A DNA stretch of 64,000 bases from Patescibacteria group bacterium (GCA_016861205.1 BOKX01000001.1:328539-392538); one strand, 5' to 3'. Counted from the first letter of the stretch, positions 25,200 through 48,571 are shown. Translations and numbers: made by a program. The notes: generated from the sequence alone by a model not told the origin.

Positions 25200-27227
25200 C
25201 TAGAACGCAATTTCTACCTGCTTGTCCTTATCCATCGTCACTACTTCTTCGCCACCATTGACGTCCAAGGTGTGTTGAATCGGTCCGATGCCACCCTGTT
25301 TCCATAGCTTAAGGCGGTAAGTAGTTGCATCGCTGTAAGGTACTGAGTAGGTGATTTTAAGCTTTGCTTGACTCATTGGTTCTAGAATAAAGTAACCGTC
25401 AACTACTTGGAAACCGTTTTCCTCGTACTCCTTGGGCTGTTGAGTGAAACCTTGGGCTTCAATCAGTTGAGAACCCTTGGGCAAGTACAAACGATGCCAG
25501 TCTCGTAGTGTGGAGTTCAAACACAGCAAACCTGCCTCTAGGTTACAGTTATCACCGCGACGGCTGTTTTTATAGGTAATCTCAACCGTCTTAGTAAGCC
25601 GACCATTCTCGGGTGTGGACACCACCTGTTTGACCTCATAATCAGTGAACAAGTTAGATTTTGCACCACCCAAATTAGCATCAACTATTGCTAAGAAATC
25701 TTGACCTTCCGTGGGCGGCACCATTTCTCCAGTAGCGTTGATCTTGGTCAAGGCTGCCTGGGCATCAGTATCAAACAAGTAGAACTGGGCATGACGATCC
25801 GCAATCGATGCGAGCCCTGTCTCAAACAACTGTGGCCACTGCTGTTTTGGCGCAGTATAGGCTTTGGTCAAAATTGCCCGCATCAAAGGTCCGATGATCC
25901 CTTTTCGATCTTCCCGAATGTACGGCGTCGGCCGAGTAATAATTTCTGAGAGGGCCAAAATAATTTGTGGACAATCACACTTAGGATCATTTTCGGCCGA
26001 GAATGTACCGTAACCCTCAACTTGCACCGGGCCAAGTACCTTCAACAAATCAGTCAAAACATGGGTATCAACGGCGATGATGCCATCAATATCTTGCGGC
26101 TCACCTTTAACCAATTTGTAGTTGGCATAAAACTGATCCATCGAGACTTTGAAATCAGGCGAGATGTTCATGTCTCGTAGGTTCCAGTACTTCTCGGTGG
26201 TTAGGTAACGGCCGAGCGCCTCGGGAATAGCAATTTGCTTGTTGAACTTCTTATCAAGCTCGTAGATATCGTCAGATTTCTCTGGTGCCACCTTACCGTC
26301 CTCGATGTAAATAATCGAGTATGCAGTCAAGAATCCGCCGGTTGGTCGAAGCTCATTGTCGTTTTGAAACAGGATGAGGTATTTTTTGCGCTCACCTCTG
26401 CCACCCGCAATGGAAGGCAGCTGTTCGATAACAGGTCTGAACTCTGTCAGAGCCGTCACCGCTCCGGTGCTGAGCTCTTGCGCCTTCACTAAACTCGGTC
26501 TAACTGTGTAACCTTGAAAAGTCTCTGGATAGCGACCCGGCTCAATTGCCGCCAGCTCTGTCTCGACAACCTTCAGCTCACCAGTAATATCATCCATAGC
26601 TGGTGCCACCTTATCGAGCGTCTGCAACAGGAGCTTCAGCCGATCTTCTGCTGTTCCTCCAGCAAATGTTCCCTCACCGGTAAAACCAAGGACGTCTGCA
26701 TATGGAGTTACAGCTTGAATTGATTTCAAACCAGCCCGCAAACCGGCGTCGGCTGCGTTCAGACCATGCTCGCCATCAAGATAGTAGCTGCGAGCAACTG
26801 GGATCGCCTTGTAAAAAGATAGGCGGTTGTACGTACCGCGCATAGCTGTCACTTGGTCTTGGAGTTTCTTGAGCTCGGCCTCAGAACCAGGCAAGTTCTG
26901 GGCTTTGAACGTGTCATATGCTACTTGAGCCTGGACCTTAGCTTCGAGAGCCTGAGACTTAAGTTCGAAAACCACCTGGTACGTATAGAAAGCCATAACG
27001 CCACCAAGTGAGGCAAACAACACCAGTACCACGAGTACCCCGGCGAGCACTTTCTGCCACGGTTTACTTAAAAATCCGCGACGTGATGGGGCCAAAGGGG
27101 CTTCAGAACTCGCAGTTGCGGTGGCTGCGGCTGCAGACTGGTCTGAGTAGAGTGATTCAGTTACTTGATCAATCACTTGATCGTTCAATTGAGGGTCAGT
27201 ATTGGGGGCAGATGGCACAACAGACAT
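25200..27227 (-). CDS. DUF4012-like membrane-anchored extracytoplasmic protein
   Basis: 675 aa. N-terminal TM after a Ser/Ala-rich cytoplasmic stretch, a long coiled-coil segment, and a motif YLILFQNDNELRPTGGF resembling the DUF4012 signature (N.E.R.TGG). Adjacent to recO with no gap. Confidence 0.5.
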   Translation of the reverse strand: MSVVPSAPNTDPQLNDQVIDQVTESLYSDQSAAAATATASSEAPLAPSRRGFLSKPWQKVLAGVLVVLVLFASLGGVMAFYTYQVVFELKSQALEAKVQAQVAYDTFKAQNLPGSEAELKKLQDQVTAMRGTYNRLSFYKAIPVARSYYLDGEHGLNAADAGLRAGLKSIQAVTPYADVLGFTGEGTFAGGTAEDRLKLLLQTLDKVAPAMDDITGELKVVETELAAIEPGRYPETFQGYTVRPSLVKAQELSTGAVTALTEFRPVIEQLPSIAGGRGERKKYLILFQNDNELRPTGGFLTAYSIIYIEDGKVAPEKSDDIYELDKKFNKQIAIPEALGRYLTTEKYWNLRDMNISPDFKVSMDQFYANYKLVKGEPQDIDGIIAVDTHVLTDLLKVLGPVQVEGYGTFSAENDPKCDCPQIILALSEIITRPTPYIREDRKGIIGPLMRAILTKAYTAPKQQWPQLFETGLASIADRHAQFYLFDTDAQAALTKINATGEMVPPTEGQDFLAIVDANLGGAKSNLFTDYEVKQVVSTPENGRLTKTVEITYKNSRRGDNCNLEAGLLCLNSTLRDWHRLYLPKGSQLIEAQGFTQQPKEYEENGFQVVDGYFILEPMSQAKLKITYSVPYSDATTYRLKLWKQGGIGPIQHTLDVNGGEEVVTMDKDKQVEIAF

Positions 27228-27271: not shown

Positions 27272-27595
27272 TCAGGATTTTAAGCGACGCCCAGACTGAG
27301 CGTGCTGCTTGAGTTGGGCTTCAGCTATCAAACTTAGACCTTCAGTAGCCAAACCGGTTGCTACCGCTGCTACTAACGTGACTAACGTCATCGGGATTTC
27401 TTGAATAGGTACTTTAAAAAACTCACTGGCTACTACGCCTTGACCACCAGCCAAAAACAAAGCCATAATTTCAGCGCTCATGAGCAGTCTTGAGTTTGCC
27501 ACATTCCGTTTAAAGCGCTCACCTTTGGCTTCCCATTCGGCACGTTGAGATTGCCGGCGACGGTTGTATATGTCAGGTCGAGTTACCATACACAA
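27272..27595 (-). CDS. Hypothetical small membrane protein (2 TM); true start may be internal
   Basis: Basic N-terminus, then LLMSAEIMALFLAGGQGVVASEFF and MTLVTLVAAVATGLATEGL helices. Immediately upstream of the initiating phosphoglycosyltransferase. Confidence 0.3.
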   Translation of the reverse strand: MCMVTRPDIYNRRRQSQRAEWEAKGERFKRNVANSRLLMSAEIMALFLAGGQGVVASEFFKVPIQEIPMTLVTLVAAVATGLATEGLSLIAEAQLKQHAQSGRRLKS

Positions 27596-27620
27596 AGTAT
27601 ATCACATGGTCTCGGGATCA

Positions 27621-28241
27621 CTACCATTTTGAGATCATTGCCCGTGGCGTTCTAGCTAAAATCTTCAAATCATTCCAAATTGAACGCTGACGAGCGTACT
27701 CAGCATCCATCTTGGCACGTGTCACAAAGGGCACTTCATTACGACCACCTGTTTGCCAGGGGCCAGTGATTCCGGGCTTAACAGACAAAATATCGTTGGC
27801 GTATGACTTCGTTTCGGGGTAGCGACTCGTCTGCTCATCGAGCTCACGCTTCACGTAGGCACGTGGTCCAACCATGCTCATTTCTCCCTTGAGCACGTTG
27901 TAGAGCTGCGGAAACTCGTCAATCGTTAACGATCGCAAAATCTTGCCCAACTTTGTAATCCGCGGGTCATTTTTGACTTTCCAGTCGTTTTTCTTAAACT
28001 CTTCGAGTAGCTTTTTGTCGTGTTTGTGCAAGATGTCATCGGCATCTTTGACCATCGACCGAAACTTGTACAAGTTAAATTCTTCACCCTGCTGTCCAAC
28101 TCGTTTGTGTTTGAAAATGACCGGCCAACCTGAATCAAAGTAGATTAAAACCGGTACGATAAACCAAAACGGTAAGAAAAGTATCGTCAGTGTCAGGGCC
28201 ACAACCAAATCAAGAATTCGTTTTTGCTGTTCGTAGTGCAT
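27621..28241 (-). CDS. Monotopic polyprenyl-phosphate phosphoglycosyltransferase (PglC/WecA-alternative 'bacterial sugar transferase' family); glycan initiation
   Basis: 206 aa. Single re-entrant helix (LTLTILFLPFWFIVPVLIYF), then KRVGQQGEEFNLYKFRSM and DEFPQLYNVLKGEMSMVGPR, the signature of the small PGT family. Confidence 0.85.
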   Translation of the reverse strand: MHYEQQKRILDLVVALTLTILFLPFWFIVPVLIYFDSGWPVIFKHKRVGQQGEEFNLYKFRSMVKDADDILHKHDKKLLEEFKKNDWKVKNDPRITKLGKILRSLTIDEFPQLYNVLKGEMSMVGPRAYVKRELDEQTSRYPETKSYANDILSVKPGITGPWQTGGRNEVPFVTRAKMDAEYARQRSIWNDLKILARTPRAMISKW

Positions 28242-28249
28242 GGCAGGCT

Positions 28250-29356
28250 TTACAAGTACTCTTTCTGGTCACGCTCTTTCAGTTGCTCAACCAGCTTTTT
28301 AACATCTTGGCTTCTGGATTTGGGAGCGATCATGATGACATCAGGTGTATCAACCACAATCATCTCTGACATTCCCACCATAGCCACCAACTTGTCACCA
28401 ACGTGGATTAAGTTGTTGTGTGAGTCGATCACCAATGTCTTAGACTCTGGCTCTTTGTTATCACCTATAATGACATTTCCATCGGTGTTTTTCTCACCTA
28501 AATCATACACGACTTTCCACTCACCGATATCATCCCAACCAAAATCGCCCGCGATCAGCAGCAAGTTATCCGCCTTTTCAGAAATTGCGTAGTCGATGGA
28601 AATACTTGGGACTGTCGCATACACATCAGGAAGCGCAATCGCAAAGTCTTTTTTCGACATCTCACCTAGGGCTTTCGTGGCCTCATGCATTTCAGGCATG
28701 TACTTGGCAAAAGCCGCCTCGAGTGCAGCTGCTGACCAGACATAGTTATTGGCGTTCCAAAAATACTTACCTGTTGAAATAAAAGCCCGAGCTGTTGCTA
28801 CGTTTGGCTTCTCAGTGAAACTATCAACTTTGAAAACAGGGGTGCTTTTAATTTTTTTGAGCTCCTGACCAACCTTGATATAGCCAAAAGCGCTTGATGG
28901 ATACGTTGGTGTAATGCCCACAGACACAAGTGACTCCTCATCACTAGCCACTTCGGCTGCCACTTTCATCAGTCGTAAAAACTCCTTCTCATTGATCACA
29001 ATATGATCGGCAGCATCATTCACCAAAATGGCGTGGGGGTCTTGAGCCTTAGCAAACAAAGCCGCTGACAACATGGCCATGGCTGTGTCTCGTTTTTCGG
29101 GCTCAGCAATGATGTTGCCCGCTGGAATTTCTGGGAGTTGGCTAGCAACATCATCGACATACTGCTTCGTAGTGACAACGATGATTTTTTCCCAAGGAAC
29201 TAACTTTGCAAACCGGTTGGCCGTCATCTGCAACATGGTGTCTTCACCATAGAGGCGCAGAAACTGCTTGGGGGTTTTGCTGCGAGATTTTGGCCATAAT
29301 CGGGTTCCGCCACCACCAGCCAGAATGACTGCAAAAGTATGATCTAAGGGATTCAT
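28250..29356 (-). CDS. manC: Mannose-1-phosphate guanylyltransferase (GDP-mannose pyrophosphorylase). Start set at MNPLDHTF; the ORF-track extension overlaps the upstream gene.
   Basis: AVILAGGGGTRLWPKSRSKTPKQF nucleotidyltransferase motif, ~368 aa with a C-terminal beta-helix-like domain. Confidence 0.75.
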   Translation of the reverse strand: MNPLDHTFAVILAGGGGTRLWPKSRSKTPKQFLRLYGEDTMLQMTANRFAKLVPWEKIIVVTTKQYVDDVASQLPEIPAGNIIAEPEKRDTAMAMLSAALFAKAQDPHAILVNDAADHIVINEKEFLRLMKVAAEVASDEESLVSVGITPTYPSSAFGYIKVGQELKKIKSTPVFKVDSFTEKPNVATARAFISTGKYFWNANNYVWSAAALEAAFAKYMPEMHEATKALGEMSKKDFAIALPDVYATVPSISIDYAISEKADNLLLIAGDFGWDDIGEWKVVYDLGEKNTDGNVIIGDNKEPESKTLVIDSHNNLIHVGDKLVAMVGMSEMIVVDTPDVIMIAPKSRSQDVKKLVEQLKERDQKEYL

Positions 29357-29357
29357 G

Positions 29358-30509
29358 TTATCCTTTCTGATGCTTTCGCCATGCCGTAGCAACCAGAGTC
29401 CGCCACTGCCGACAAAACTCATTTGTATCATATTTCTTTAGTTTTCGCTGGACAAGATCAGGGTCCACCTGACATGTCAGGAGTTTCGGCAAAGCTGCTA
29501 CCACGTCTGATGTGGTTTCGTCGGCAATCTCAACTTTTGCTGAGTCTGGAATGATCTCTGCTACTCCACTTCGGGCGTGAACTAGAACCGGAATTCCTCG
29601 CGTAACTGCCTCGGCAGCGGTAATCCCAAAGTCCTCTAAACCTGGCATCAACAGACCAGTTGCTTGTTCATAGTGCGTCTCTAGCTGCTGAGCCGTTACC
29701 TGCCCAACAAAAGTAATTAACTGATCTGCACCCGGCAGACTATTCACTAGCCGCTGGAGTCTTCGTCTGTCAGGACCGTCACCAATAATCTTCAAGCGAT
29801 AGCCAGAGATGGCACAAGCCTCAATGGCTAGATCAAGTCGTTTGTAAGCTACCAGCCGAGACACACAAATAAAGTTTGGCGTGGTAACTGGATGATCATA
29901 ATTTTTGGGGAGGGTTGCTGATATTGGTGGGTATATGACTGACTCGGTTGACCGCGAGTACGTTGCTACCACACGGTCAGCAACAAGATTTGAGATAGGT
30001 ATGACAAGATCTGGTCTCCAAGCTGAAACCTGATCAACTCGTCGCAAGTAAGCCAAAAGTGGTTGCGCTAACTTAGAGCTGAGCTTCGCCAGCGGCAGCT
30101 GCGCTTGATACGCCTGTTGATGACTGTATAAATAGCGAGGCGGTGTTAGCAGATAACAAACATGAAGTTGCTGTGGTTGCGTCAGAATACCTTTTGCGGG
30201 ACCACTCGTCACTGAAATCACAACCTCGTACTCTGACAGAGAGAGGCTTTCGGCTGCCAGCGGCAGTAAAGGTGCCAGCCACCGATGGGATCGCCACGGC
30301 AGTGGTAGCCGATTCAACCAGCTACTTACCACCTGCCAACTTTGCAACCAAGCGACTCGATCAGGTCGAGTTAATGTGGTGAAGAGGGGCGCGGTTGGAA
30401 AAGCCGCATGCAACGCTGAAAGTACTTGTTCAGCACCACCATATGGTGTAGTTGCCCAGTCATACACGATCGCGACGCGAGGTGATCTTGAGCGTGACTG
30501 GTTTGTCAT
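29358..30509 (-). CDS. GT4 (GT-B) glycosyltransferase
   Basis: 383 aa. C-terminal E-x7-E region (FGITAAEAVTRGIPVLVHARSGVAEII) typical of the Glycos_transf_1 family. Confidence 0.75.
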   Translation of the reverse strand: MTNQSRSRSPRVAIVYDWATTPYGGAEQVLSALHAAFPTAPLFTTLTRPDRVAWLQSWQVVSSWLNRLPLPWRSHRWLAPLLPLAAESLSLSEYEVVISVTSGPAKGILTQPQQLHVCYLLTPPRYLYSHQQAYQAQLPLAKLSSKLAQPLLAYLRRVDQVSAWRPDLVIPISNLVADRVVATYSRSTESVIYPPISATLPKNYDHPVTTPNFICVSRLVAYKRLDLAIEACAISGYRLKIIGDGPDRRRLQRLVNSLPGADQLITFVGQVTAQQLETHYEQATGLLMPGLEDFGITAAEAVTRGIPVLVHARSGVAEIIPDSAKVEIADETTSDVVAALPKLLTCQVDPDLVQRKLKKYDTNEFCRQWRTLVATAWRKHQKG

Positions 30510-31606
30510 ATGGCTAGTGCTTGGCGATACGTAACCAATGTCTGTTTTGTCATAGCGAGCCAGCTGTACTGCTTAACAAGCCGCGCCACCTGAGTTGAAG
30601 TTGGTTGATGAGTCGCAACTTCTGCCACAGCACGGACAAAATCTGCTGGTGAGTATGGGTCAAAGTAAACTGCTGCATCAGCATAGATTTCGTGAAAAAT
30701 AGGAATGTTTGAAGCTAGCACTGGTGCTCCAGCTGCCAAAGCCTCCACCCCAGTCAATCCAAAACCTTCGGAGAGTGAAGGCTGGACCAAAGCGGTGGCA
30801 GTTAGATAGCGGCGTCGAAGTTCGGCATCGGTTACGTACCCCACAAACTCAACACGATCACTGACATGTAGCTCACGAGCTAGCCGGCGGGTTTGATCCT
30901 GAAACACGTTTCTTGCCCCAACAAGCACCAGTTTATAGTCAGGCAACAGTCGCAACGCTTGAATGACCACTTGGATATTCTTGTGCGGATAGAGCGAACC
31001 AACATACAGCAGCTCTGGCTGTTTTTTGCCTGGGTGACGAGAGACAGGGGTTTTAAATGCTTCAGCAATTCCCTCTTTTGTAACAACCACCTTGGCCTCA
31101 GCCGAGGGATAGTGTCGGCTCAACGTGTGCTTGATTGTTTCGGCTGGAACCAAAACAGCAGTAGCTCGCTGTATGGCTGCCGTGGCTACCAAACGATAGG
31201 CCCAGTACTTGATCCAGTACCAGAGCGGCGATAAGGTGGTCACACGCTGACCACGATACTCATGCCACAACAAGTCATGAATGGTCACCACTAACTTTCC
31301 CCGATACAGCAACGGCACATTAAAATGTGGCACGTGGAGTAAATTAAGGTGAGCCTGATTTAAAACTCGAGGCCATTGCCACTGTTCAGCAAAGGAGTAA
31401 TGCCGGATCGGAGCAAACTTAACTTCCACATTTGCAGGTAAGTCAACACCACCCATCACCTGTTGGAGTTGTTTGGCATCATGAAAAAAATACACCCACG
31501 TCACGTCTTGACCGACTTGCGGCAAGCGTTGAACGAGATTCTCGATATATCGACCGATGCCGGCGTGACGTAATCCCGCCAGCCGGCAATCGACGCCTAT
31601 TCTCAT
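30506..31606 (-). CDS. GT4 (GT-B) glycosyltransferase, mannosyltransferase-like
   Basis: MRIGVDCRLAGLRHAGIGRY N-terminus and GFGLTGVEALAAGAPVLASN C-terminal motif. Confidence 0.75.
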   Translation of the reverse strand: MRIGVDCRLAGLRHAGIGRYIENLVQRLPQVGQDVTWVYFFHDAKQLQQVMGGVDLPANVEVKFAPIRHYSFAEQWQWPRVLNQAHLNLLHVPHFNVPLLYRGKLVVTIHDLLWHEYRGQRVTTLSPLWYWIKYWAYRLVATAAIQRATAVLVPAETIKHTLSRHYPSAEAKVVVTKEGIAEAFKTPVSRHPGKKQPELLYVGSLYPHKNIQVVIQALRLLPDYKLVLVGARNVFQDQTRRLARELHVSDRVEFVGYVTDAELRRRYLTATALVQPSLSEGFGLTGVEALAAGAPVLASNIPIFHEIYADAAVYFDPYSPADFVRAVAEVATHQPTSTQVARLVKQYSWLAMTKQTLVTYRQALAI

Positions 31607-31618
31607 AATAGTGATAGT

Positions 31619-31987
31619 TTACTTCTTAAACTTGGTTGCTTTTTTGGTACTAGCACTAACAGTAGCTACGCTGGGGCTGCATTGACAGTTTTCGCAATCA
31701 CAACCCATTTCCATCATCTGCATTTCCAGTTTTTTGGCTTTTGCGTCGCGCATAAAGTTACCAGCCATGGCGTACACAAAATAACCCACACCCACTACAA
31801 ACGCGGCGACTGGAATGTACTCTAAGAGCTTAGGTTGCTCGGTCAAATCCATGTTCGCGTAGTAGTACTTAAATAAGAGCTGTGGCAGCACTGACGCCAT
31901 GAAGAGTGCAAACACAAACACCGCGATGGACTCGACGGCTTTACTGATGTTTTGAGCTCGTAAAGATTGAGCTTGGAAATGATGCAT
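31619..31987 (-). CDS. Small 2-TM membrane protein with C-terminal Cys cluster (CDCENCQC); start set at the MHHFQ ATG, coupled to the upstream GT2 stop (TAATG)
   Basis: Two hydrophobic helices (IAVFVFALFMASVLPQLL; VAAFVVGVGYFVYAMAG), then ...EMGCDCENCQCSP.... The ATG at 31987..31985 overlaps the TAA stop of GT2 (31989..31987). Confidence 0.45.
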   Translation of the reverse strand: MHHFQAQSLRAQNISKAVESIAVFVFALFMASVLPQLLFKYYYANMDLTEQPKLLEYIPVAAFVVGVGYFVYAMAGNFMRDAKAKKLEMQMMEMGCDCENCQCSPSVATVSASTKKATKFKK

Positions 31988-32865
31988 TAGATGCCTCCCT
32001 TTTTGATAGTAATTACTGCATTGACCAACCAACGAACCCACTCTGGGTACTGCTGACGGTAGTGCTTATCATAATACTGGCTCATTGTATCGTAAAAGTA
32101 GTCACGTGTCTTGCGCCTGACAGAGTCCGAGTTACTCGACATACCAGACTTGTACTTGTGGTGAATCAAAACTACTTCGGGGTGAAAAATAATCTGGAAA
32201 CCTTGGGCTCGAAACCGATGACACCAATCTAAGTCTTCAGCATAGAAAAAGAACCGCTCGTCGAGTAAACCCACCTTGGCAATGGCTGTTTGGCGCACGA
32301 TCATAGCCGCACCTGAACACGCCTCGATCTCATGAACTTGAGTCAAATCTTGATAGGTTTGATGGTATTGTCCCAACCATTTTGAGGCTGGTGACAATTT
32401 GCTCAAACCAGTGAAGTACGTAAATGCGGCCCATAAGGTAGGTTCACCACGATGACAAGCCCAATCTAGTTCACCCGTTGATAGCACCAACTTTGGTGTC
32501 ACTACCGCCACCTGCTTGTTCGCATCGAGGTAGTCTAAGAGCACATCGAGGTTTGAGTCTGATGTGAACTCCACATCTGAGTTCAACAACATCACATAGC
32601 GCCCCTTGGCCTGCTTTAAACCCACGTTGTTTCCAGCCGAGAAACCCAGGTTTTCTTTAAGCGCGATAACCTTGACCCATTTATACTGCTTTTCCAGAAA
32701 CTGAACCGAGTCATCGCTGCTACCATTGTCCACCACTATCACATCCACTTTCCGTTTCGTCTTAGCCAGGTACTCTGCTTTGAGTGAGTTCAACGTTGTT
32801 TTCAACCAAAACTGACCGTTGTAGTTAACGATGATAATGCTTAAATCTGCGACAGCGGCCGACAT
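31987..32865 (-). CDS. GT2 (GT-A) glycosyltransferase
   Basis: LSIIIVNYNGQFWL...VVDNGSSDDS...LNSDVE: classic GT2 DxD architecture. Confidence 0.8.
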   Translation of the reverse strand: MSAAVADLSIIIVNYNGQFWLKTTLNSLKAEYLAKTKRKVDVIVVDNGSSDDSVQFLEKQYKWVKVIALKENLGFSAGNNVGLKQAKGRYVMLLNSDVEFTSDSNLDVLLDYLDANKQVAVVTPKLVLSTGELDWACHRGEPTLWAAFTYFTGLSKLSPASKWLGQYHQTYQDLTQVHEIEACSGAAMIVRQTAIAKVGLLDERFFFYAEDLDWCHRFRAQGFQIIFHPEVVLIHHKYKSGMSSNSDSVRRKTRDYFYDTMSQYYDKHYRQQYPEWVRWLVNAVITIKKGGI

Positions 32866-32876
32866 GCTGGTCTTTC

Positions 32877-34082
32877 TTAGTGATCTGACTTTGGTTTACT
32901 AAAACTACGATAAAGCCGATCTAGTTTTTTCGCAATCTGATCCCAGTCAAAATTCTTGCCTACAAACGCGTGCCCACGCTTGGCTAGCTCCGCCCTGAGT
33001 GCTGAATTCTTTAACAAACGGACTGTCTGGTCAGCTAGCTCCTGGGCATCAGCCCCTATTAAAACTTCTTGTTCGGGTTTTACAGCTAATCCTTCCACTG
33101 CGATCGGAGTGGCCACCACCGGAGTTTCTGAGGCTAAAGCTTCGAGAATTTTATAGCGGGTCCCTTTGCCACTAAATACTGGCGCTACCAAAACATGTGC
33201 TCCCTTGAAAGCATCGCGAATATCTGGGATTCCTCCTGTCACTGTAATCGAGGTATCTTTGTGTTGAAAAGCCACGACCTCTTTCGTCGGGGCATTACCT
33301 ACAATCCATAACCGCGCGTTGGGGACTTGTTGCTTAATGAGTGGCCAAACTTCGGCCACCAGGAAACTGACTGCTTCCACGTTTGGCAACCATTTAAAGG
33401 TTCCCACAGACAACACTGTCGGCTCCGTAGGTATGGCCGCCTTTTTCTCTTCAAACCACTCTAAATCAACGCCATTTGCAACAACTTCAATTTTGGTGTC
33501 ACTCCCGATTTCTTGCGCAATAAACTGCTTATCTTCCTCGCTCATGACCACCAGTTGCTGACACGCTTCCCAGTAGTACTTTTCCCAACGTTTAATCTTG
33601 TCAATGTCGATGCGCAACAACGGTCGCAACCACTTTTTTGCCCGGTTGGCATAACTTTCGTAGCCCAGATACTCGATCGTTTGCTCAACCAGCATCACAG
33701 GCACATCTGTCTTTGGCAGATGAGGCATCATGTAAAACGTTTCCGCGTGAATCAGATCGTACGCTCCATTTTGGAGCTCCGCTTGAATGGCCTTGGTAGC
33801 TGATGGGGCGTGATTGCGAATCACTAAGAACGGATAGGAAGAAATCGCAGTTTGCAAAATATTTTTGAGCGTGAATGGCTTGTGAGAGCGTTTAAAAAGC
33901 TTAACTTTAGCGCAGTACTTCTCGAGCTCAGCGATGTATTGACGCTCGCTGTTTTCTTTAATCAAGGCAAACAAGGTAATTTCGTGCTCTTGCGAAAGCT
34001 TTTTGAGTAAGTTGTACGTCCGAATCTGCCCACCCGATAACAATGGGTATGGCAAGTAGGGAGTCAGCATTAAAATTTTCAT
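32877..34082 (-). CDS. GT4 (GT-B) glycosyltransferase
   Basis: MKILMLTPYLPYPLLSGGQIRTYNL N-terminus; C-terminal KGTRYKILEALASETPVVATP. Confidence 0.75.
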   Translation of the reverse strand: MKILMLTPYLPYPLLSGGQIRTYNLLKKLSQEHEITLFALIKENSERQYIAELEKYCAKVKLFKRSHKPFTLKNILQTAISSYPFLVIRNHAPSATKAIQAELQNGAYDLIHAETFYMMPHLPKTDVPVMLVEQTIEYLGYESYANRAKKWLRPLLRIDIDKIKRWEKYYWEACQQLVVMSEEDKQFIAQEIGSDTKIEVVANGVDLEWFEEKKAAIPTEPTVLSVGTFKWLPNVEAVSFLVAEVWPLIKQQVPNARLWIVGNAPTKEVVAFQHKDTSITVTGGIPDIRDAFKGAHVLVAPVFSGKGTRYKILEALASETPVVATPIAVEGLAVKPEQEVLIGADAQELADQTVRLLKNSALRAELAKRGHAFVGKNFDWDQIAKKLDRLYRSFSKPKSDH

Positions 34083-34108
34083 AGTTCCTGACTAGTACTT
34101 AGAGCAAT

Positions 34109-36028
34109 CTAGCTTCGTCGGGTACGACGCGTTCGTGGTTTCGTTTTCGCACCTCGGGATCGCTTGCCTGCTTTTGATTTGGTCGCCGAAGCCGTCTTGA
34201 TGGCCTGAGCTAACGTCACTGATTCGGCATCCCCAGGTTGAACGGGAGATAGAGTAGCCAGCTTTTCATCTTTTTGGCGGCGGGTAATGTACAAGGCTGC
34301 CATCGCCAAACCGGCCAAACTCCAGTAGGTTTGAGCAACCTTCGAAGCCGCAAATACGTCGATGTAAATGGCGTTCAGCAGCAAACCAATACTGCCACCG
34401 ATAAAGCCAACCGCCACCGAGCTCACTAACCAGTCCGCATCTTTGATACGGCGGAAAGACTTAACGAGCAAGTACACGATTGCACCGTAGAAAACGATAA
34501 AGCCAATCGCGCCCGTCTCACCGAGTGTGCGCAGGTAGTTATTGTCAGTACTATCCGCTTCGGTAAAGATCTCGATCCCTTCTTTGGTAAGCGTCGCATA
34601 ACCCGTACCTAGGAACGGGTTGTACAAGAAACCTTCCAAAGCTCGTGGCCAGAGCGTTTCCAGCCGGATACATAGCGACAATTCTTTCTCAAGTGCACAT
34701 TCAGAGTAAACTCTTGGTCGCTGCACTTTTTTCACCACTTTCTCACCCTGTTCATCAACTGTGGTGACTTCTACCAAGTCAGGGATGTTCTCATATACAC
34801 CGGCCGGTAAGTGAGTGGGAGCCGGTGCCTTGAAAATTGGCGGTGCCGATACCAACGGTTTAGAACCATTATCACCTGTCGGTGTTGGTGGCTGATCTTT
34901 GCTACTGGCAACTTCTTGAGTCGCAGCCAACTCAGCGGCGATCTGGGCCGCAACTTGATCGGTTGAAACACCATTGGCGGGTTGCTTATCGGTTTTGGGC
35001 AACATTTCTTGCAAGCGCTTCGGCGACAGGGGCAAGCTGGCCACCTGCTCATCGCTGAGTACCACTCTTCGCCAGTCTGTTAGCTGCGCCGCAGCTGAGG
35101 CTAAGGTCGGGTTAGCATTGACCACATGTCCCAATCTTTCCGACAGGTCAGCTCCGAAGTAGTAAAACAGGACTAAGATGCCAAGCAGCGTCAGCGTTCC
35201 ACGACTCAAAGCAAACCTGATTCGCTGTGACCAATTAGTCTGTAGTAAGGCTGTAATTAAAACAACTAGACCAACACCTCCCAAGTAGGCGGCGAATGGC
35301 ATTCGAGATGCACTCAAGATAAGCAACCAACTCCCCAGCCAAAAAGTGAGCCACAAACCTCGCTTGGCCCAGGTATGGGCGGTTTTCAGGGCCAACGCCA
35401 AGATAAGTGGTAACACGGCCACCATGTAAGCTGCCATGTCGTAATGCCCGGCAAATGTTGACTGTACACGCGCGTACTGGGTCAGATATAAACGAATACC
35501 TTTGCTAAACTCTCGATTCATTGTCGAGTACACCGGCCAATAGTAGTATTTTTGACCATACCCATACGCTGCAATTGCAACTACGGTGGCCACGAGCAAG
35601 CCAAGGATAACCTTCAACTGCCAGCGGTGCTTAATAGAACTAAATGCAATAAAAAACAGCGTGAAGTACTCAAGGTAGCGGAAGTAATGGAGGATGGTTT
35701 TGCCTAAGTGCAAGGGCTGCAGCGGCACGGTCTGAGTAACGTACACAGCTGAGACTGTTGAGGCCGCTCCCACAATGGCATACGCCACTACCCACCAGAA
35801 GAAACCCACATTCCAAGTGATCTTTCGTCTCAAGGCTTGAACGAGCCATACTAGACTTGCTCCCAAGATTACAAAGTCCTCTAAGCGCACCCGAACGATG
35901 TACTGCTCGATTGGGCTCCACAGCGGAATCTTAGGATACAGAGGTACAAAAACGATGAGCAAACAGGCGAGCACAAACAACAGATACTCATCCAACCAAC
36001 GTCCAACTTTCGAAAGGGTGTGCCACAT
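34109..36028 (-). CDS. O-antigen ligase/polymerase family (Wzy_C) polytopic membrane protein with a large Pro-rich extracytoplasmic insertion and a basic C-terminal tail
   Basis: 639 aa, >10 TM. NNYLRTLGETGAIGFIVF matches the Wzy_C/WaaL motif (HN.yL..l.E.G..G). A ~170-aa insert (..PTPTGDNGSKPLVSAPPIFKAPAPTHLPAG..) precedes it. The C-terminus is KSKAGKRSRGAKTKPRTRRTRRS. Confidence 0.65.
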   Translation of the reverse strand: MWHTLSKVGRWLDEYLLFVLACLLIVFVPLYPKIPLWSPIEQYIVRVRLEDFVILGASLVWLVQALRRKITWNVGFFWWVVAYAIVGAASTVSAVYVTQTVPLQPLHLGKTILHYFRYLEYFTLFFIAFSSIKHRWQLKVILGLLVATVVAIAAYGYGQKYYYWPVYSTMNREFSKGIRLYLTQYARVQSTFAGHYDMAAYMVAVLPLILALALKTAHTWAKRGLWLTFWLGSWLLILSASRMPFAAYLGGVGLVVLITALLQTNWSQRIRFALSRGTLTLLGILVLFYYFGADLSERLGHVVNANPTLASAAAQLTDWRRVVLSDEQVASLPLSPKRLQEMLPKTDKQPANGVSTDQVAAQIAAELAATQEVASSKDQPPTPTGDNGSKPLVSAPPIFKAPAPTHLPAGVYENIPDLVEVTTVDEQGEKVVKKVQRPRVYSECALEKELSLCIRLETLWPRALEGFLYNPFLGTGYATLTKEGIEIFTEADSTDNNYLRTLGETGAIGFIVFYGAIVYLLVKSFRRIKDADWLVSSVAVGFIGGSIGLLLNAIYIDVFAASKVAQTYWSLAGLAMAALYITRRQKDEKLATLSPVQPGDAESVTLAQAIKTASATKSKAGKRSRGAKTKPRTRRTRRS

Positions 36029-36037
36029 AGATTGTTC

Positions 36038-37054
36038 CTAGTTACGGCCCTGCCACAACTCACGGTAAGCTTTCTGACGAGCCTTATGTTTACCCATTGT
36101 ACCAAATAACCACCATCTCCATAGGGCACCAAGTTTCAAAATGGCCTTGACCAACGGCAGTTGCCAGTGAGGCTTGTGTTTCGCCCAAACGTATAAATAC
36201 CCTTTGTATTCACCCTTTATAGCGTTGACCGAACTCGAGCTGGCACTACCAATGTGAGTAACTTGCGCCGCTGGTTGAATAACTACATCCCAGTGATGAT
36301 GCTTCGCCCTCATGCAAAACTCGATGTCTTCGCCATACATAAAGATTCGGTCATCAAGCAAACCAATCTCGTCAAACACACTCCGCCGAATAGCCATGGC
36401 GGTTCCCCCCACCCAATCTCTGACTGCCAACTCCTGACTCAGTTCGATGGCACGCTGACCCGTGTGCTGGGTCGAAGGCAACCACTTGCCCAACACCGGA
36501 ATGTCATCCAGCATCAGCCACTGGGCCGCCAGCGACAAGAGCGTAGGAAAAGAACCACCTTGGTGTTGAACTGTCCCATCAGTGTTGAGCAACAGCGCCG
36601 ACACAATTCCCAACCGGTCAATATCACCCTGCGTTCTAGCCAGCTGGGCGCGGCTTTCCTGAATTGGATGCGTATCGAATGTTTGCACAATCGCTTGTAA
36701 TGCCCCCGGTTTAATCTCGGTATCCGAGTTGAGCAACAAAATAATTTCGCCCTTGGCGGACTGAATACCTTGGTTGTTCGCTCCCGAAAAACCCAAGTTA
36801 TGATCATTGATAATCACCTTAAACTTCTTGGGCTGTTTTAGGGCCAACTGACGCAAGTACTTTGGTGAATCATCACTCGAATTATTATCAACAAAGATTA
36901 GCTCAGTGCGCTTAGCTAGATCCGGATAGTTCTTCAGATCACTCATCACTGACTCAACCGTTTGCTCCGTCAACATTCGCGTGTTGTACGACACGATAAT
37001 GATAGAAAGTTTGAGCGACTCTTCAGTCATAATTGTTGTACTTACTGAAACCAC
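36038..37054 (-). CDS. GT2 (GT-A) glycosyltransferase
   Basis: LSIIIVSYNTRML...FVDNNSSDDS...LNSDTE. Confidence 0.8.
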   Translation of the reverse strand: MVSVSTTIMTEESLKLSIIIVSYNTRMLTEQTVESVMSDLKNYPDLAKRTELIFVDNNSSDDSPKYLRQLALKQPKKFKVIINDHNLGFSGANNQGIQSAKGEIILLLNSDTEIKPGALQAIVQTFDTHPIQESRAQLARTQGDIDRLGIVSALLLNTDGTVQHQGGSFPTLLSLAAQWLMLDDIPVLGKWLPSTQHTGQRAIELSQELAVRDWVGGTAMAIRRSVFDEIGLLDDRIFMYGEDIEFCMRAKHHHWDVVIQPAAQVTHIGSASSSSVNAIKGEYKGYLYVWAKHKPHWQLPLVKAILKLGALWRWWLFGTMGKHKARQKAYRELWQGRN

Positions 37055-37659
37055 CTGGCTCGACCTAAACGATACTTCAGCTCGCCAGCTCGCTCGCCAA
37101 TTACTTTGGCTGGCACTCCAGCGGCGATACTATTGGCTGGCACCGACTTTGTCACCACTGCGCCTGCTCCGATCGCTGCACCACGACCAATACTCACACC
37201 CGGCAAAATAATCACTCTAGGTCCAATGAACACATAGTCTTCAATCACAACCGGCTCTTCAATAGCTCGGAAACGCTCATCAGTTAGGTCATGTTGACTG
37301 GTCCAAATCATAACTTCTGAGGCAATATCAACATGGTTACCAATAGTCACCCCGCTCTTTGAACTAGCGAGTTGCCGACGGCCGTCTATGGTAACTCGCT
37401 CACCAACAATGGTGTCATCACCAATCGTCACAAACCTCGGGTCAAAAAATCGCCCCATCATGTGAATCGTCGAGCCATGGCCAATCTTCATACCAGCTAA
37501 GCGATAGAAAAACCGCCTCAAGTGATGTGAGGGGACGTACCCGACTCCCCACCATAAAAAACCAGTCACAAACTCCAGCCAAATACTGCTTAGCCGGTTG
37601 AGTACCTTTGCGGTCAAGGACCGTCGACCTGTTTGGGAAACATCTGTTGAACCTGTCAT
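37042..37659 (-). CDS. Left-handed beta-helix (hexapeptide-repeat) sugar O-/N-acetyltransferase
   Basis: Repeating [LIV]GxxxxI hexapeptides (IGPRVIILPGVSIGRGAAIGAGAVVTKSV). Confidence 0.7.
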   Translation of the reverse strand: MTGSTDVSQTGRRSLTAKVLNRLSSIWLEFVTGFLWWGVGYVPSHHLRRFFYRLAGMKIGHGSTIHMMGRFFDPRFVTIGDDTIVGERVTIDGRRQLASSKSGVTIGNHVDIASEVMIWTSQHDLTDERFRAIEEPVVIEDYVFIGPRVIILPGVSIGRGAAIGAGAVVTKSVPANSIAAGVPAKVIGERAGELKYRLGRARWFQ

Positions 37660-38692: not shown

Positions 38693-38708
38693 ATCTTGTC
38701 CGAATGGT

Positions 38709-39281
38709 CTAGCGAGGTTTACCTAGTAACTTCATAGCCTGTTTTAACAGCACTTTCAACTCAGAACTCTCTTTGGGTAACTCAGGAAGAACCTGGTAGA
38801 TCTCAGCCTCATCAAATCCCAGTGACTGCAAGGCAGCTACTAGATCTTGTTCGAGTTGCGAACGAGGACCAAGCGATAACTCTTGTAAACTACCCAGTTT
38901 CCCCTTTAGTTCAATAATAATTTTCTGGGCGAGCTTTGTACCAACTCGCGGAATTGAGGTAAAGTACTTAACATCGGCAGTTTGCACGGCTTGCACCAAT
39001 GACTCTGCCCCCCGATCAATAATCGTTAAAGCAATGCGTGGGCCGACGCCTGAGACATCTAGAAGTAACTCAAAAACTTCTTTTTCCCGATACGTCCCAA
39101 AACCAAATAAACTCAGCTGATCTTCTCGGACATGCGTGTGAATAAATAGCTCGGCTTCTTCCAGACTACCCAGTCGCTGGGCCGTGGAAGTACCGACTTC
39201 CACACCATAACCTACACCATGAACCACCAGGATAAAGTGTTGACCGATTAACTGTGGGCGACCTTTTAACCAAGCAATCAT
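38709..39281 (-). CDS. ruvA: Holliday junction DNA-binding protein RuvA (start set at MIAWLKG)
   Basis: [10 protein letters not shown]...[13 protein letters not shown]-fold N-terminus, then HhH motifs ([11 protein letters not shown]) and a C-terminal domain. Confidence 0.85.
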
Positions 39282-39335
39282 AGAATTGTAATTTCGTGTT
39301 TTTTGATCAGAAGTTCGGTGTTCTTTCGCCACCAA

Positions 39336-39854: not shown

Positions 39855-40714
39855 CAGGGACGCTCTTGAGGAGACTCAATTCGAAAACCCAAGGGATAGT
39901 ATTCTGGCTGAAAAATCACTTTTTCAAACTGAGTCTTGATCACCCAACGGTAGTGTCCTGTCGACTCATCATAGCTGTACTCCATCGGGGCACAACTTGT
40001 AATTTGTCGGAACAACTTGGGGTTAAAAGCCTTCAGTTGGGACAAGTTACGAGGACACAAACTAGGGTCATCTGACTCGACACACAAAGCCTTGAGGTGT
40101 GCATTAAAATGATGATACTGTCGAACTTGATCTTCGCATCGCATAAGTAGCAAAAATCCACCCACCGCGGTTAAAACTGAGATCGTGAAACTCAGACCCA
40201 ATAAGGCGAGTGACCAGTTTAGCCAAATCCGAACTTTCGCCCAAGTGTGTCGCGAAGCCAACCTAATCATCAACACCCCACCCAGGACAATCAAGGGAAA
40301 AGAAATCAAGAGCGCCAGCGGCACAAAGTACAGTACGATGCTGACTGGCCAAAAAGCAGTTGCTATGTCTGAAGGCGCCACGACCTCTGACCACCGTCCC
40401 GCTAGATAACCCAGGGCCAACCAAACTGGTCGAGTAGCCACATAGAGACCATGTATCAGCCAATACCAAGGATGGTCAGCTTCGGCACTCGATACTTCTA
40501 GTAACCAAATACTGGTCAGAGCCAAGATGGTAGGCCAGATTCCAAAGACTACTGCCACTAAGCCTAACCCTCGATTTTTGAGTTTGGCAGCTGGTTTTTG
40601 CCCCGCATTGATGCGCATCGCCACAACCGTCGTGAACACCGAGCTACATACAATTACCACAGCAACGACACCCCAAATCCCGCTCTGATACAGCCAGCCG
40701 AGTGGAGTCATCAT
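39842..40714 (-). CDS. Hypothetical polytopic membrane protein with a Cys-containing C-terminal soluble domain
   Basis: ~6 TM in the first 200 aa, then a hydrophilic tail (CEDQV...CVESDDPSLCP...). No family recognised. Confidence 0.45.
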   Translation of the reverse strand: MMTPLGWLYQSGIWGVVAVVIVCSSVFTTVVAMRINAGQKPAAKLKNRGLGLVAVVFGIWPTILALTSIWLLEVSSAEADHPWYWLIHGLYVATRPVWLALGYLAGRWSEVVAPSDIATAFWPVSIVLYFVPLALLISFPLIVLGGVLMIRLASRHTWAKVRIWLNWSLALLGLSFTISVLTAVGGFLLLMRCEDQVRQYHHFNAHLKALCVESDDPSLCPRNLSQLKAFNPKLFRQITSCAPMEYSYDESTGHYRWVIKTQFEKVIFQPEYYPLGFRIESPQERPWWSW

Positions 40715-41874
40715 GATTTTTTGGCTGAGGTAGCCACCTCCTCAAGTGTTTGCAGTACTACAGCTGCACTGCTTGACCAATCAAACTTTCTCAGCTGCTG
40801 CCGGGCTAGTCGTTGCAACCGCAGTCTCTCGCTTGCTCGCAAAGTAACAGCCTGATATAAGCCTCGAGCAATATCGTTAATGTCTAGGGGATCAACCAGT
40901 ATCCCTGCCTGCCCCACCACTTCAGGTAAACTGGTGGTATTGGACACCACTGGGACTGTACCAAACTGCATTGCCTCAAGGGGTGGCATCCCAAACCCCT
41001 CATACAAACCAACTAACACACTGGCGGTGGCTGTTTGGTACAGGGCTGCCTTAGCTTGATCATCGATAAAACCTGGTAGCACAATCCGCGACCGGTATGG
41101 TGACTCATTAATCCTGGCTAAGATACCATCTGCCAACCAACCAACCTTGCCTGCTATTACTAGTTGTAGCTGCGGCTGGCTGGAACGTCCTACTTCATGG
41201 TCTAGTCGAGTCGCCAACTTTTCAAAAGCCGCCACGAGCCGCTCCAAGTTCTTACGCGGCTGCAAAGTTCCGACATAGAGAAGGTATGGACCAGTAATCC
41301 CCATAGCCTTCAAAATTGCTTTTGATCTCGTGAGTGGGACCTTAGCTACCTGACTTGTGGTGGCTGGGTAGGCCACAACCACTTCTTTGGCCCGGCGACG
41401 ATACTGTTTCACCACGTCCTTTTTGGTCGCCTGACTAATCGCAACGACTCTTTGGGCATGGCGAACACTGTATGCCGTCCAGTGTTTCAGTTGAATATAG
41501 TCGCGCCGTTTAAATTGGGTCGGGAACTCCAAGAAAGCCAGATCCATCACCGAAGAAACATAGGGCACCACTGACAGTCTTGGTGCATAGTGACCCGGCG
41601 TGAAAAGCACATCGTACCGAGGAGCGTGTGTGAAAAGATGCCAGGGCAAAGCCAACTGTGTCCAAAGTGGATGTGGACCTACAACCTCGTACTGCCAGTT
41701 TGGTCCGGGTTGAGGCAGATCAGATTGGGGAGTATCTGCCAGCAACACGGTCACTTCAATATCTGGCCGGTGACGAGTTAGTTGGGCCAAAGCTGAAATG
41801 AGCTGGTACGCATACACATTGCTACCAACACGGTTTGAGACATTGGCTTCGTTGCCATCAATTGCAATCCGCAT
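40711..41874 (-). CDS. GT4 (GT-B) glycosyltransferase (start set at MRIAIDG)
   Basis: MRIAIDGNEANVSNRVGSNVYAYQ; C-terminal EGFGMPPLEAMQFGTVPVVSN. Confidence 0.75.
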   Translation of the reverse strand: MRIAIDGNEANVSNRVGSNVYAYQLISALAQLTRHRPDIEVTVLLADTPQSDLPQPGPNWQYEVVGPHPLWTQLALPWHLFTHAPRYDVLFTPGHYAPRLSVVPYVSSVMDLAFLEFPTQFKRRDYIQLKHWTAYSVRHAQRVVAISQATKKDVVKQYRRRAKEVVVAYPATTSQVAKVPLTRSKAILKAMGITGPYLLYVGTLQPRKNLERLVAAFEKLATRLDHEVGRSSQPQLQLVIAGKVGWLADGILARINESPYRSRIVLPGFIDDQAKAALYQTATASVLVGLYEGFGMPPLEAMQFGTVPVVSNTTSLPEVVGQAGILVDPLDINDIARGLYQAVTLRASERLRLQRLARQQLRKFDWSSSAAVVLQTLEEVATSAKKS

Positions 41875-41878
41875 AGTT

Positions 41879-43018
41879 TTATCTTCCGCCAGCTGCTTGA
41901 TGATAAACTCGGGTGGTTTCCAAGGCCACTCGGTTCCAGTCAAATAAATGTAACCTAACAATCATTTGTTGTGCCCGGCGTTGCTGGGCTGTGGGTGACT
42001 CACTCAAAATTGCCTTGAGTCCATCACGGATACTCTCGACGGATTCGGGGTTAACTAGTACAGCCGCATTGCCAGCTACTTCAGGCAAACTGGATACGTT
42101 GGAAGTGACTACGGGCGTACCATGATGGAAAGCTTCCAAAATAGGCAAGCCAAAGCCCTCGTACAATGACGGATAAGCAAAAGCCTCAGCCTGACTATAG
42201 AGCACTGCCAGTTCCTGATCTGTGACCTTACCCAGCAACCGCAACTGACCTTTACTTTCAGCTAGCCACTTGTCACTGTCATCCCAGCCAGCTGCACCAG
42301 CAATCAACAGTTGGTACTCTTTAGCCAAAGGTAGCCAAGCTTTAATCAGTCGATCCATGTTTTTGCGCGGCTCCCGAGTCCCAACAGCCAAAATGTACGG
42401 TCGATCGAGTTTGAGCCGATGGACCACTGCTGCTTCGACCTCCTCAGTGATGCTTTGGCTAGCCGCTACAACTTCTTGAGGTAAAGCCTCGTGAATCACG
42501 GTAATCTGCTCACTCGGGATATCGAGATACTCCATGATGTCAAGCTTGGTAGCTCGACTAACAGCAATAATGTGCGCACGACGCGCTTTGAGTGTTTTCC
42601 AAGCTCGTTGGTGATGAGCTAAGATCTCGGGATGGGCTGTCTCGGGAAACTTTAACATCGCCAAATCATGGATTGTCGAAACCAGCGGCAGATCCTCATC
42701 GGGTGGCTGCACCCAGTCCCAGCTGTGAAAAACCTGCAGCCTGGGCCAGAAACTCCGTACCGAGTTCAAGGTGGTGTGTGACCACAACCAGCTCAAAGCC
42801 CGTGGTGGCAACGACTGAATATGGCTGGCGGCTGGTTTAAGCTCTGATACCAAGTTGGTTAGTTTCGATTTTTGCCGCAGCGATGAGCCATAGAGATGGA
42901 CCGCCACATCAGGTTGCTGCCCCAGACATCTCACTAGATTAGTAGTGTATCTAGACACTCCCCGACCGTACACCACTGACGAGATGTCGACACCAACTGC
43001 TAAACGTGTATTGCTCAC
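41879..43018 (-). CDS. GT4 (GT-B) glycosyltransferase
   Basis: RLAVGVDISSVVYGRGVSRYT N-terminus; EGFGLPILEAFHHGTPVVTSN. Confidence 0.75.
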   Translation of the reverse strand: MSNTRLAVGVDISSVVYGRGVSRYTTNLVRCLGQQPDVAVHLYGSSLRQKSKLTNLVSELKPAASHIQSLPPRALSWLWSHTTLNSVRSFWPRLQVFHSWDWVQPPDEDLPLVSTIHDLAMLKFPETAHPEILAHHQRAWKTLKARRAHIIAVSRATKLDIMEYLDIPSEQITVIHEALPQEVVAASQSITEEVEAAVVHRLKLDRPYILAVGTREPRKNMDRLIKAWLPLAKEYQLLIAGAAGWDDSDKWLAESKGQLRLLGKVTDQELAVLYSQAEAFAYPSLYEGFGLPILEAFHHGTPVVTSNVSSLPEVAGNAAVLVNPESVESIRDGLKAILSESPTAQQRRAQQMIVRLHLFDWNRVALETTRVYHQAAGGR

Positions 43019-43039
43019 AGGTATCCTTCTAAACTACTG

Positions 43040-44521: not shown

Positions 44522-44556
44522 AGTCAGTAACCAATTACAATCATGGTATAGTAACA

Positions 44557-44574
44557 ACTATCTCGTGCGATAGT
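44557..44574. promoter_or_regulatory. Palindrome ACTATC-N6-GATAGT in the divergent promoter region between the GT-C gene and the UDP-GlcA decarboxylase gene; candidate operator
   Basis: Perfect 6-bp inverted repeat with a 6-nt spacer, flanked by AT-rich TAGT-rich sequence. Confidence 0.25.
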
Positions 44575-48449: not shown

Positions 48450-48571
48450 ACCCTTAGTATAGCAACAACTTTGCTACCAAACAGGTCAAGATATCAACGA
48501 GCTACCCATCAATCCGTTCACGCTCCTTATTGCCCACCACATTCTGTGTTAGTATTGGTGCAGAAAGATCT

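Follow-up and report, generated by a model that had tools for sequence, protein, structure and literature searches.

The window analysed here is a chromosomal stretch of 64,000 nucleotides (64 kb) from a Patescibacteria genome of the Microgenomates type (GCA_016861205.1, BOKX01000001.1:328539-392538), and the system in question is a glycan assembly block found at positions 27,272 to 37,659. The block encodes a Wzy_C-family membrane enzyme, called WzyC below, and is directly followed downstream by the gene for a DUF4012 protein. In the best reading of the data, to which we give a probability of roughly 0.45, WzyC polymerises a glycan and the DUF4012 protein attaches the resulting chain, within a conserved pathway based on polyprenyl-diphosphate. 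This reading draws on a gene order kept throughout the lineage, on the residues found at the catalytic site of WzyC, and on the modelled fold of the DUF4012 protein, which resembles that of the LCP (LytR-Cps2A-Psr) proteins. The assembly of a polyprenyl-phosphate-linked glycan is itself supported by the company of a Wzy_C-family enzyme with an initiating phosphoglycosyltransferase (PGT) and an array of glycosyltransferases (GTs).

Eighty genomic loci with WzyC homologues were fetched and the window proteins were mapped onto them, colinearity being scored on the 72 loci with eight or more of the array genes. The order PMT2-GT4e-GT4d-ruvC-ruvA-ruvB-LbH-GT2b-WzyC-GT4c-GT2a-tm140-GT4b-GT4a-manC-PGT-DUF4012 (names as in Table 1) is perfectly colinear in 69 of these 72. 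Median identity reaches 71% for the PGT (55 loci), 66% for the left-handed beta-helix (LbH) acetyltransferase (71 loci), 64% for GT4c (68 loci), 62.5% for DUF4012 (51 loci), 60% for manC and 44% for WzyC; the comparison genes give 67% for RuvB, 49.5% for RuvA and 40% for RuvC. GT4a is syntenic in 57 loci. The gene order is identical in four independent assemblies of this species, and the GC content is flat over the region. Such colinearity, together with identities of this size when set against RuvA and RuvC, points to a lineage-wide envelope glycan and not to a variable locus of the O-antigen type. Loci for O-antigens or capsules behave in the opposite way, exchanging transferases and polymerases from strain to strain; judged from these sequences, the present glycan belongs to the lineage as a fixed trait.

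The family itself is large: WzyC has more than 1000 homologues at E <= 0.001, nearly all of them 560–640 aa long and covering about 90% or more of the query, and those with named hosts are labelled Patescibacteria, Pacebacteria or Woesebacteria. Among the related metagenome-assembled genomes, many bear the title “uncultured Pseudomonadales bacterium,” and a few are assigned to Methylococcaceae, Flavobacteriaceae or Vitreimonas; these labels look wrong, given that the gene content and the closest relatives are those of Patescibacteria. In about 74 of the 80 relatives a 475-aa GT-C gene of the PMT/PMT_2 type lies between WzyC and GT4c (for example at 11793-13220 of locus L005). Here only 26 bp (34083-34108) separate the two genes, as is also the case in the four assemblies and in locus L051, and no homologue of the 475-aa gene was found elsewhere in the 64-kb window.

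The first-pass annotation, made on the sequence alone, had taken the block for a complete assembly line in one array, which proved too narrow a view. The block contains no flippase, and is the middle of a longer array that runs Wzx … PMT2-GT4-GT4-ruvCAB-LbH-GT2-WzyC-GT4-GT2-tm140-GT4-GT4-manC-PGT-DUF4012. Beyond ruvCAB come GT4d, GT4e and a GT-C transferase of the PMT_2 type, and 9 kb upstream of the block lies a Wzx-like gene, the only flippase candidate of its type in the window, which keeps this place in the order at the outer end of four related loci. The conserved unit is therefore the whole stretch from Wzx to DUF4012. The genes ruvB, ruvA and ruvC (37664-39854, minus strand) are located inside this glycan array, and their place in it is the same in over 55 related loci.

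WzyC was modelled with AlphaFold2 on 71 homologues (pLDDT 83, pTM 0.85). The model has 12 transmembrane (TM) helices; a long loop on the outside (residues 292-506) connects TM9 with TM10, and the cytoplasmic tail is disordered. The Pfam match to Wzy_C scores 38.6 bits against a gathering cut-off of 31.7; the long loop divides it into two stretches. When the model was compared with the PDB using Foldseek, the only significant match was the O-antigen ligase WaaL (7tpg_B, E 1.3e-4, probability 1.0, TMt 0.55), with FtsW a weak second (TMt 0.49). The relatedness to Wzy_C, on which the earlier interpretation of the block had been staked, is thus borne out by both the Pfam score and the fold. Neither the WzyC profile nor a C-terminal fragment found any match among PDB sequences, even at E = 10, and Pfam detected neither PglL_A nor any other domain specific to O-oligosaccharyltransferases in WzyC, Wzy_C being the sole hit.

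The loop had been described as an unusual Pro/Thr-rich insertion of about 170 aa. A long loop does exist, and at 215 aa it is even longer, but it is Pro-rich over only some 40 residues (371-412), and overall its commonest residue is Ala, followed by Leu, Val and then Pro. Nor is it unusual, since none of the 71 aligned homologues lacks it (168–214 aa, median 184) and it is a family feature. It holds helices, a beta-hairpin and strongly conserved motifs. Within it, the Pro/Ser/Thr-rich disordered linker varies from 4 to 30 aa across the family and is among the longest here, at 27 aa. Cys444 and Cys453 covary perfectly, with both present in 50 homologues, neither in 21, and no mixed case, a pattern that fits an extracellular disulfide. 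The Arg/Lys-rich tail noted in the same annotation is also real (18 Lys and Arg in the last 83 residues) but common to the family, whose median Lys and Arg fraction is 0.30; it fits a cytoplasmic C-terminus.

Does such an enzyme then join glycan units to each other, or to something else? In clan GT-C1, the O-antigen ligases use two arginines and a histidine that activates the acceptor, whereas in the SEDS polymerases and the inverting Wzy polymerases an arginine is paired with an Asp or Glu where the ligases have the histidine (Meitil et al., 2024, PMC10920833). This histidine is required in WaaL, namely H338 in E. coli and H313 in C. metallidurans (PMC10920833). Residues were matched through the Wzy_C profile coordinates of short fragments of WzyC and of E. 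coli K-12 WaaL; a plain pairwise alignment of the two proteins was uninformative, and hhalign covered the N-terminal half only (E = 0.24). Arg242 of WzyC corresponds to Arg215 of E. coli WaaL (profile position 16), a pairing that hhalign makes independently, and Arg455 corresponds to Arg288 (profile position 83). Asn496-Asn497 fall on His338-Asn339 (profile positions 131-132), the pairing with His338 depending on an assumed extra residue in WaaL, by which three glycines stay in register. The His-Asn motif of the ligases is thus replaced by Asp495-Asn496-Asn497. Arg242, Arg455, Asp495 and Asn497 are invariant in the 71 homologues, and position 496 is Asn in 69 of them and Asp or Gly in the other two, but never His. 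With the histidine absent throughout and Asp495 invariant, WzyC fails a defining feature of the ligases and resembles the polymerase pattern. Arg242 and Arg455 are predicted, and here proposed, to bind the lipid diphosphate. In addition, R455-X10-G466, as read from the sequence, resembles RX10G, a loop motif of Wzy (PMC12004945). We put the chances that WzyC is a polymerase at about even, and the label “O-antigen ligase family protein” carried by these proteins is probably misleading.

The DUF4012 protein has more than 2200 matches at E <= 0.001 and is better conserved than WzyC, with 58–80% identity in an alignment of 53 sequences. Its AlphaFold2 model (pLDDT 84) begins with a disordered N-terminus and one TM helix leading into long helical hairpins, followed by an alpha/beta domain at about residues 280-500 and a C-terminal beta-sandwich. 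Foldseek matched this model to nine LCP entries at probability 1.00 (3pe5, 2xxp, 2xxq, 3tfl, 3tep, 3tel, 4de8, 3nxh, and 3owq), among them Cps2A, TagV/YvhJ and Lin1025, with E-values of 8e-4 to 5e-3 over 240–296 columns. By sequence, there is no match to the PDB. A motif search found no canonical LCP genes in the window or in the 80 related loci. On the strength of the model, the DUF4012 protein is probably a very divergent member of the LCP fold; as an enzyme that attaches glycans to the wall it is a plausible candidate, at somewhat less than even odds. In the exopolysaccharide (EPS) cluster of Bifidobacterium longum 105-A, a DUF4012 gene comes after that of the priming transferase, and wzz, wzy and wzx are separate genes (PMC5412050). 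The papers found to mention DUF4012 do not describe an LCP link.

Put together, these elements suggest the following pathway. The PGT would load a hexose-1-phosphate onto the lipid carrier, and the five cytoplasmic transferases (three GT4 and two GT2) would lengthen the unit, with mannose supplied via ManC, while the WcaF-like enzyme LbH would O-acetylate it. The unit would presumably be flipped outward by the Wzx-like protein encoded upstream. WzyC would join units into a chain, with Arg242 and Arg455 holding the lipid diphosphate and Asp495 activating the acceptor, and the DUF4012 protein would finally transfer the finished chain to the cell wall. A broader version would have all Microgenomates-type Patescibacteria make one conserved wall-linked heteropolysaccharide, by means of a His-less Wzy_C polymerase with a disulfide-stabilised outside domain of 170–215 aa and of DUF4012 as an LCP-type enzyme attaching it to peptidoglycan. 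Taken as a whole, that version must be called unlikely.

Several observations speak against polymerisation by WzyC followed by attachment through DUF4012. Asp495 is placed one residue before the histidine column, and the loop around it (residues 491-499) is modelled at a pLDDT below 50. Since no relative other than WaaL has been solved, the fold search cannot tell a ligase from a polymerase. No match to a Wzz/PCP co-polymerase family was found among the scanned ORFs (open reading frames) of the window. Furthermore, O-glycosylation loci of the Neisseria type bring together a PGT, GTs, an acetyltransferase, a Wzx-like flippase and a Wzy_C enzyme without any polymerase. As for DUF4012, its link to LCP is at the level of the fold only (TM-scores 0.31–0.40), and Pfam LytR_cpsA_psr is found in none of the 53 members, even at E <= 10. 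A comparison by hhalign with LCP sequences taken from PDB alignments gives a weak local match (E = 0.068). In favour of the link, this match falls on LCP hallmark motifs and lays DIDGIIAVD…LGPV over PIDKYVTVD…GGI; at lower stringency Lys317-Ser-Asp is placed over Arg-Ser-Asp, and hhalign also pairs I334-P with the I-P of IPRD, the Arg of PRD not being kept. A global hhalign comparison was uninformative.

How far do these points favour other explanations? WzyC could be a ligase or O-oligosaccharyltransferase, of the same type as WsaB, PglL, and TacL, which in one step would transfer a single oligosaccharide or an ABC-2-exported chain to an S-layer protein, a pilin or a membrane glycolipid. Its sole significant structural match is an O-antigen ligase, the sources name the family accordingly, no Wzz-type partner turned up in the ORFs scanned, and the large folded outside domain with its putative disulfide could recognise a protein acceptor. 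Next to the array, at 48.5-51.5 kb, lies an ABC-2 Wzm/Wzt pair with a methyltransferase, and S-layer glycosylation in Geobacillus likewise relies on a WbaP-like initiator together with an ABC transporter and a Wzy_C transferase; the gene directly after WzyC in about 74 of the 80 relatives is, moreover, similar to PMT-type protein mannosyltransferases. The histidine that WaaL requires, and PglL as well, is however missing from every one of the 71 family members, Pfam found in WzyC neither PglL_A nor any similar domain, the conserved array has no acceptor protein gene, and the DUF4012 protein offers a separate, LCP-like candidate for attachment. The first-pass annotation had also suggested a ligase, attaching the glycan to an acceptor such as an S-layer protein or a secondary cell-wall polymer; that suggestion is weakened by the same missing histidine and by an adjoining protein whose LCP-like fold could do the attaching. 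A ligase therefore stays a tentative option, credited with perhaps a third of the chances.

Two further explanations concern the array as a whole. In one, the GT4 enzymes, ManC and the GT-C enzymes would make a mannose glycolipid or lipoglycan, in the manner of the actinobacterial phosphatidylinositol mannosides (PIMs) and lipomannan, with WzyC and the PGT at work in a separate process. GT4b and GT4c do have weak PDB matches to PimA, manC is part of the array, and GT-C genes of the PMT_2 type are conserved nearby. These GT4 matches are generic, however, with WbaZ, PglA and MshA scoring equally; no phosphatidylinositol-related genes were seen, and a highly conserved Bac_transf PGT, a family making polyprenyl-diphosphate-linked sugars, is integral to the same colinear array. 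The glycolipid explanation is accordingly very improbable. The general gene content also recalls O-antigen and capsule loci, so that the block might be a strain-variable surface-antigen locus shaped by phage or host pressure. Against this stand the same order and content in 69 of 72 loci from different species, the high identities relative to RuvA and RuvC, the flat GC content, and the identical order in four assemblies. On these synteny data a variable antigen was rejected, its likelihood being negligible.

Polymerisation by WzyC and attachment by DUF4012 can also be set beside known systems. WaaL (CAZy GT121; PDB 7TPG) shares with WzyC the Wzy_C domain, the 12-TM fold, the large outside loop between TM9 and TM10, and two arginines at the same profile positions. 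WzyC nevertheless has no detectable sequence similarity to the solved ligases, carries Asn in place of the catalytic His next to an invariant Asp, and has a loop about twice as long (215 aa, the length in E. coli WaaL being an estimate), which includes a disulfide pair as well as a Pro-rich linker. The general view of Patescibacteria is that they have one membrane and no lipopolysaccharide (LPS), and would hence lack a lipid A-core acceptor; no LPS genes were seen within the 64-kb window. The inverting Wzy and SEDS polymerases of clan GT-C1 resemble the present system in having an arginine and an acidic residue at or next to the site of the ligase histidine, a motif of the RX10G type, and a Wzx-type flippase in the array. 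They differ in that no Wzz/PCP partner was found here in the scanned ORFs, and in that WzyC is highly conserved, with 41–72% identity between species, while Wzy proteins are known for their strong divergence.

The Wzy_C family also includes enzymes that pass a lipid-linked glycan on to a protein or a glycolipid, such as PglL/PilO/WsaB and TacL, the lipoteichoic acid ligase of pneumococci. The pgl loci of Neisseria have the same parts list as the array, with PGT, GTs, acetyltransferase and Wzx-like flippase, but contrary to the PglL type, WzyC has neither the histidine nor PglL_A, and its array no acceptor gene. Among Gram-positive systems, the cps locus of S. pneumoniae (CpsA/Cps2A, CpsE, Wzx, and Wzy) provides a priming PGT, GTs, a flippase, a polymerase and a wall-attachment protein, and the model of DUF4012 is similar to Cps2A; the eps cluster of B. 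longum 105-A has its DUF4012 gene after the priming transferase, as here. Unlike Gram-positive capsule loci, however, the cluster has no CpsC/CpsD tyrosine-kinase module, its DUF4012 protein has no LCP match in Pfam, it is conserved rather than serotype-variable, and ruvCAB is embedded in it. The enterobacterial common antigen (wec) offers another parallel, as a Wzx/Wzy-type cluster that is kept throughout an entire order and does not vary from strain to strain, although its enzymes are different, its polymerase WzyE is retaining, WzzE is present, and its hosts have two membranes.

The features of the array are collected in Table 1. Families were assigned with Pfam and NCBIfam profiles, and gene starts follow the calls made independently on four public assemblies of this species. 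All relevant ORFs between 22 and 48 kb are on the minus strand.

Table 1. Features of the glycan array and of WzyC, with positions counted from the first letter of the window.
Feature	Position	Strand	Basis
DUF4012 protein, 675 aa, directly downstream of block	25200..27227	-	Pfam DUF4012
PGT, small monotopic phosphoglycosyltransferase, initiating enzyme, 206 aa	27621..28241	-	Pfam Bac_transf 2e-61
manC, GDP-mannose pyrophosphorylase, without PMI domain	28250..29356, ORF open to 29431	-	Pfam NTP_transferase + ManC_GMP_beta-helix
GT4a, GT4 glycosyltransferase	29358..30509	-	Glycos_transf_1 7.9e-20
GT4b, GT4 glycosyltransferase	30506..31606	-	Glycos_transf_1 5e-32 + Glyco_transf_4
tm140, small 2-TM protein, 122 aa, between GT2a and GT4b	31619..31987	-	TM segments; four-assembly gene calls
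GT2a, GT2 glycosyltransferase, soluble	31987..32865	-	Glycos_transf_2 1.8e-24; no TM segment
GT4c, GT4 glycosyltransferase	32877..34082	-	Glyco_trans_1_4 5e-25
WzyC, Wzy_C-family membrane enzyme, 639 aa	34109..36028	-	Pfam Wzy_C 38.6 bits
WzyC extracytoplasmic loop, residues 292-506, 215 aa	34511..35155	-	AlphaFold2 model secondary structure
WzyC Asp495-Asn496-Asn497, at site of ligase His-Asn motif	34538..34546	-	Translation; profile positions 130-132
WzyC Pro/Ser/Thr-rich disordered linker in loop, residues 371-412	34793..34918	-	Translation; pLDDT <50 for 371-400
GT2b, GT2 glycosyltransferase	36038..37054, alternative ATG start 37030	-	Glycos_transf_2 2.8e-24
LbH, left-handed beta-helix O-acetyltransferase, WcaF-like	37042..37659	-	Hexapep 4.8e-16
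GT4d, GT4e and PMT_2-type GT-C transferase, upstream array part	40711..44557	-	Pfam; syntenic in 45-54 related loci
Wzx-like flippase, Polysacc_synt	47157..48449	-	PF01943 7.3e-11

The gene content given by the first-pass annotation (PGT, manC, three GT4, two GT2, Wzy_C protein and acetyltransferase) was recovered by Pfam in full, with the same positions, strand and families, as was the adjoining DUF4012 gene; the small membrane protein between GT2a and GT4b is now resized to 122 aa. Initiation had been called PglC-like. This is true of the architecture of the PGT, which is small and has a single N-terminal hydrophobic helix (residues 13-31), but in sequence it is nearer to the catalytic domain of the Gal-1-P transferase WbaP (8t53, 3.8e-41) than to PglC (8e37, 2.8e-28), and so closer to a hexose-1-phosphate transferase domain. 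ManC matches TIGR01479 at 1.8e-90 over model positions 3-353 of 467, and its start is most likely at 29356 (368 aa in the four assemblies). The PDB sequence matches of GT4b include the mannosyltransferases WbaZ and PimA. GT4c has full-length similarity to TIGR03087 (6.5e-66) and LbH is similar to the WcaF family NF007797 (1.2e-28), both under the model cut-off. GT2b is 330 or 338 aa long, depending on the assembly gene call. The protein tm140, for which a Pfam search gave no match, has a Cys-rich cytoplasmic tail (CDCENCQC) with a Lys-rich end; its homologues in 51 related loci keep the helices, and the Cys clusters vary. NCBIfam has no model for WzyC or DUF4012, and no block gene reaches any of its curated cut-offs.

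At the downstream edge of the block, the 107-aa ORF 27272-27595 (minus strand, TTG start) is called as 69 or 105 aa in different assemblies and has no homologue in the 80 related loci, and it is doubtful as a gene. Scans for promoters and terminators over 24.0-43.9 kb gave counts not above those of shuffled controls, and tRNA and Rfam scans gave no match.

Two membrane proteins of the wider array deserve mention. The first, at 39842-40714 (minus strand) between GT4d and ruvC, has 290 aa and about six membrane segments; it occurs in each of the four assemblies from this species and has no homologue in the 80 related loci, and is thus a lineage-specific insertion into the conserved array. The second, beside the Wzx-like gene at 45569-47179 (minus strand), has 536 aa, about 13 membrane segments and no Pfam match, and its N-terminal loop EPYPDGLLY looks GT-C/ArnT-like by eye. 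It was considered as a second Wzy and rejected, being unrelated to the WzyC profile. The window has no Wzy-like protein other than WzyC.

A second glycan block extends over 48530-63345 on both strands. It opens with the ABC-2 Wzm/Wzt pair and its methyltransferase, and also encodes a hexapeptide acetyltransferase, a DegT aminotransferase, a 573-aa GT2, a HAD hydrolase, a nucleotidyltransferase, a GDPD protein, two Glyco_trans_1_2 proteins, another GT2 and a WavE-like protein. This second block could feed a ligase-type enzyme. The rest of the window includes IleRS, GlyRS, recO, and a division and cell-wall cluster at 5.7-21.5 kb, within which 13939-16338 (minus strand) encodes a 799-aa MurC-MurB fusion made of three MurC-like Mur ligase domains followed by FAD_binding_4 and MurB_C.

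The cluster type as such is already known. Literature searches on O-antigen ligases, Wzy and surface glycans in Patescibacteria turned up no description of this WzyC family or of its cluster, and neither the His-less Wzy_C subfamily with its long, disulfide-bearing loop, nor its class-wide synteny with ruvCAB, nor an LCP-like fold for DUF4012 is described in the literature searched. The patescibacterial cell envelope has hardly been studied by experiment. A colinearity that spans the class, with identities at the level of DNA-repair genes, makes the product of this array a strong candidate for an essential envelope polymer, and the glycan is a possible contact surface for hosts and phages. Two assignments are open to direct testing: a Wzy_C subfamily with Asp-Asn-Asn instead of the ligase His-Asn motif, and an LCP-like fold for DUF4012, a domain also present in Gram-positive EPS clusters. 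Should DUF4012 indeed attach the polymer, this would give the domain a function in the EPS clusters of Actinobacteria and Firmicutes as well.

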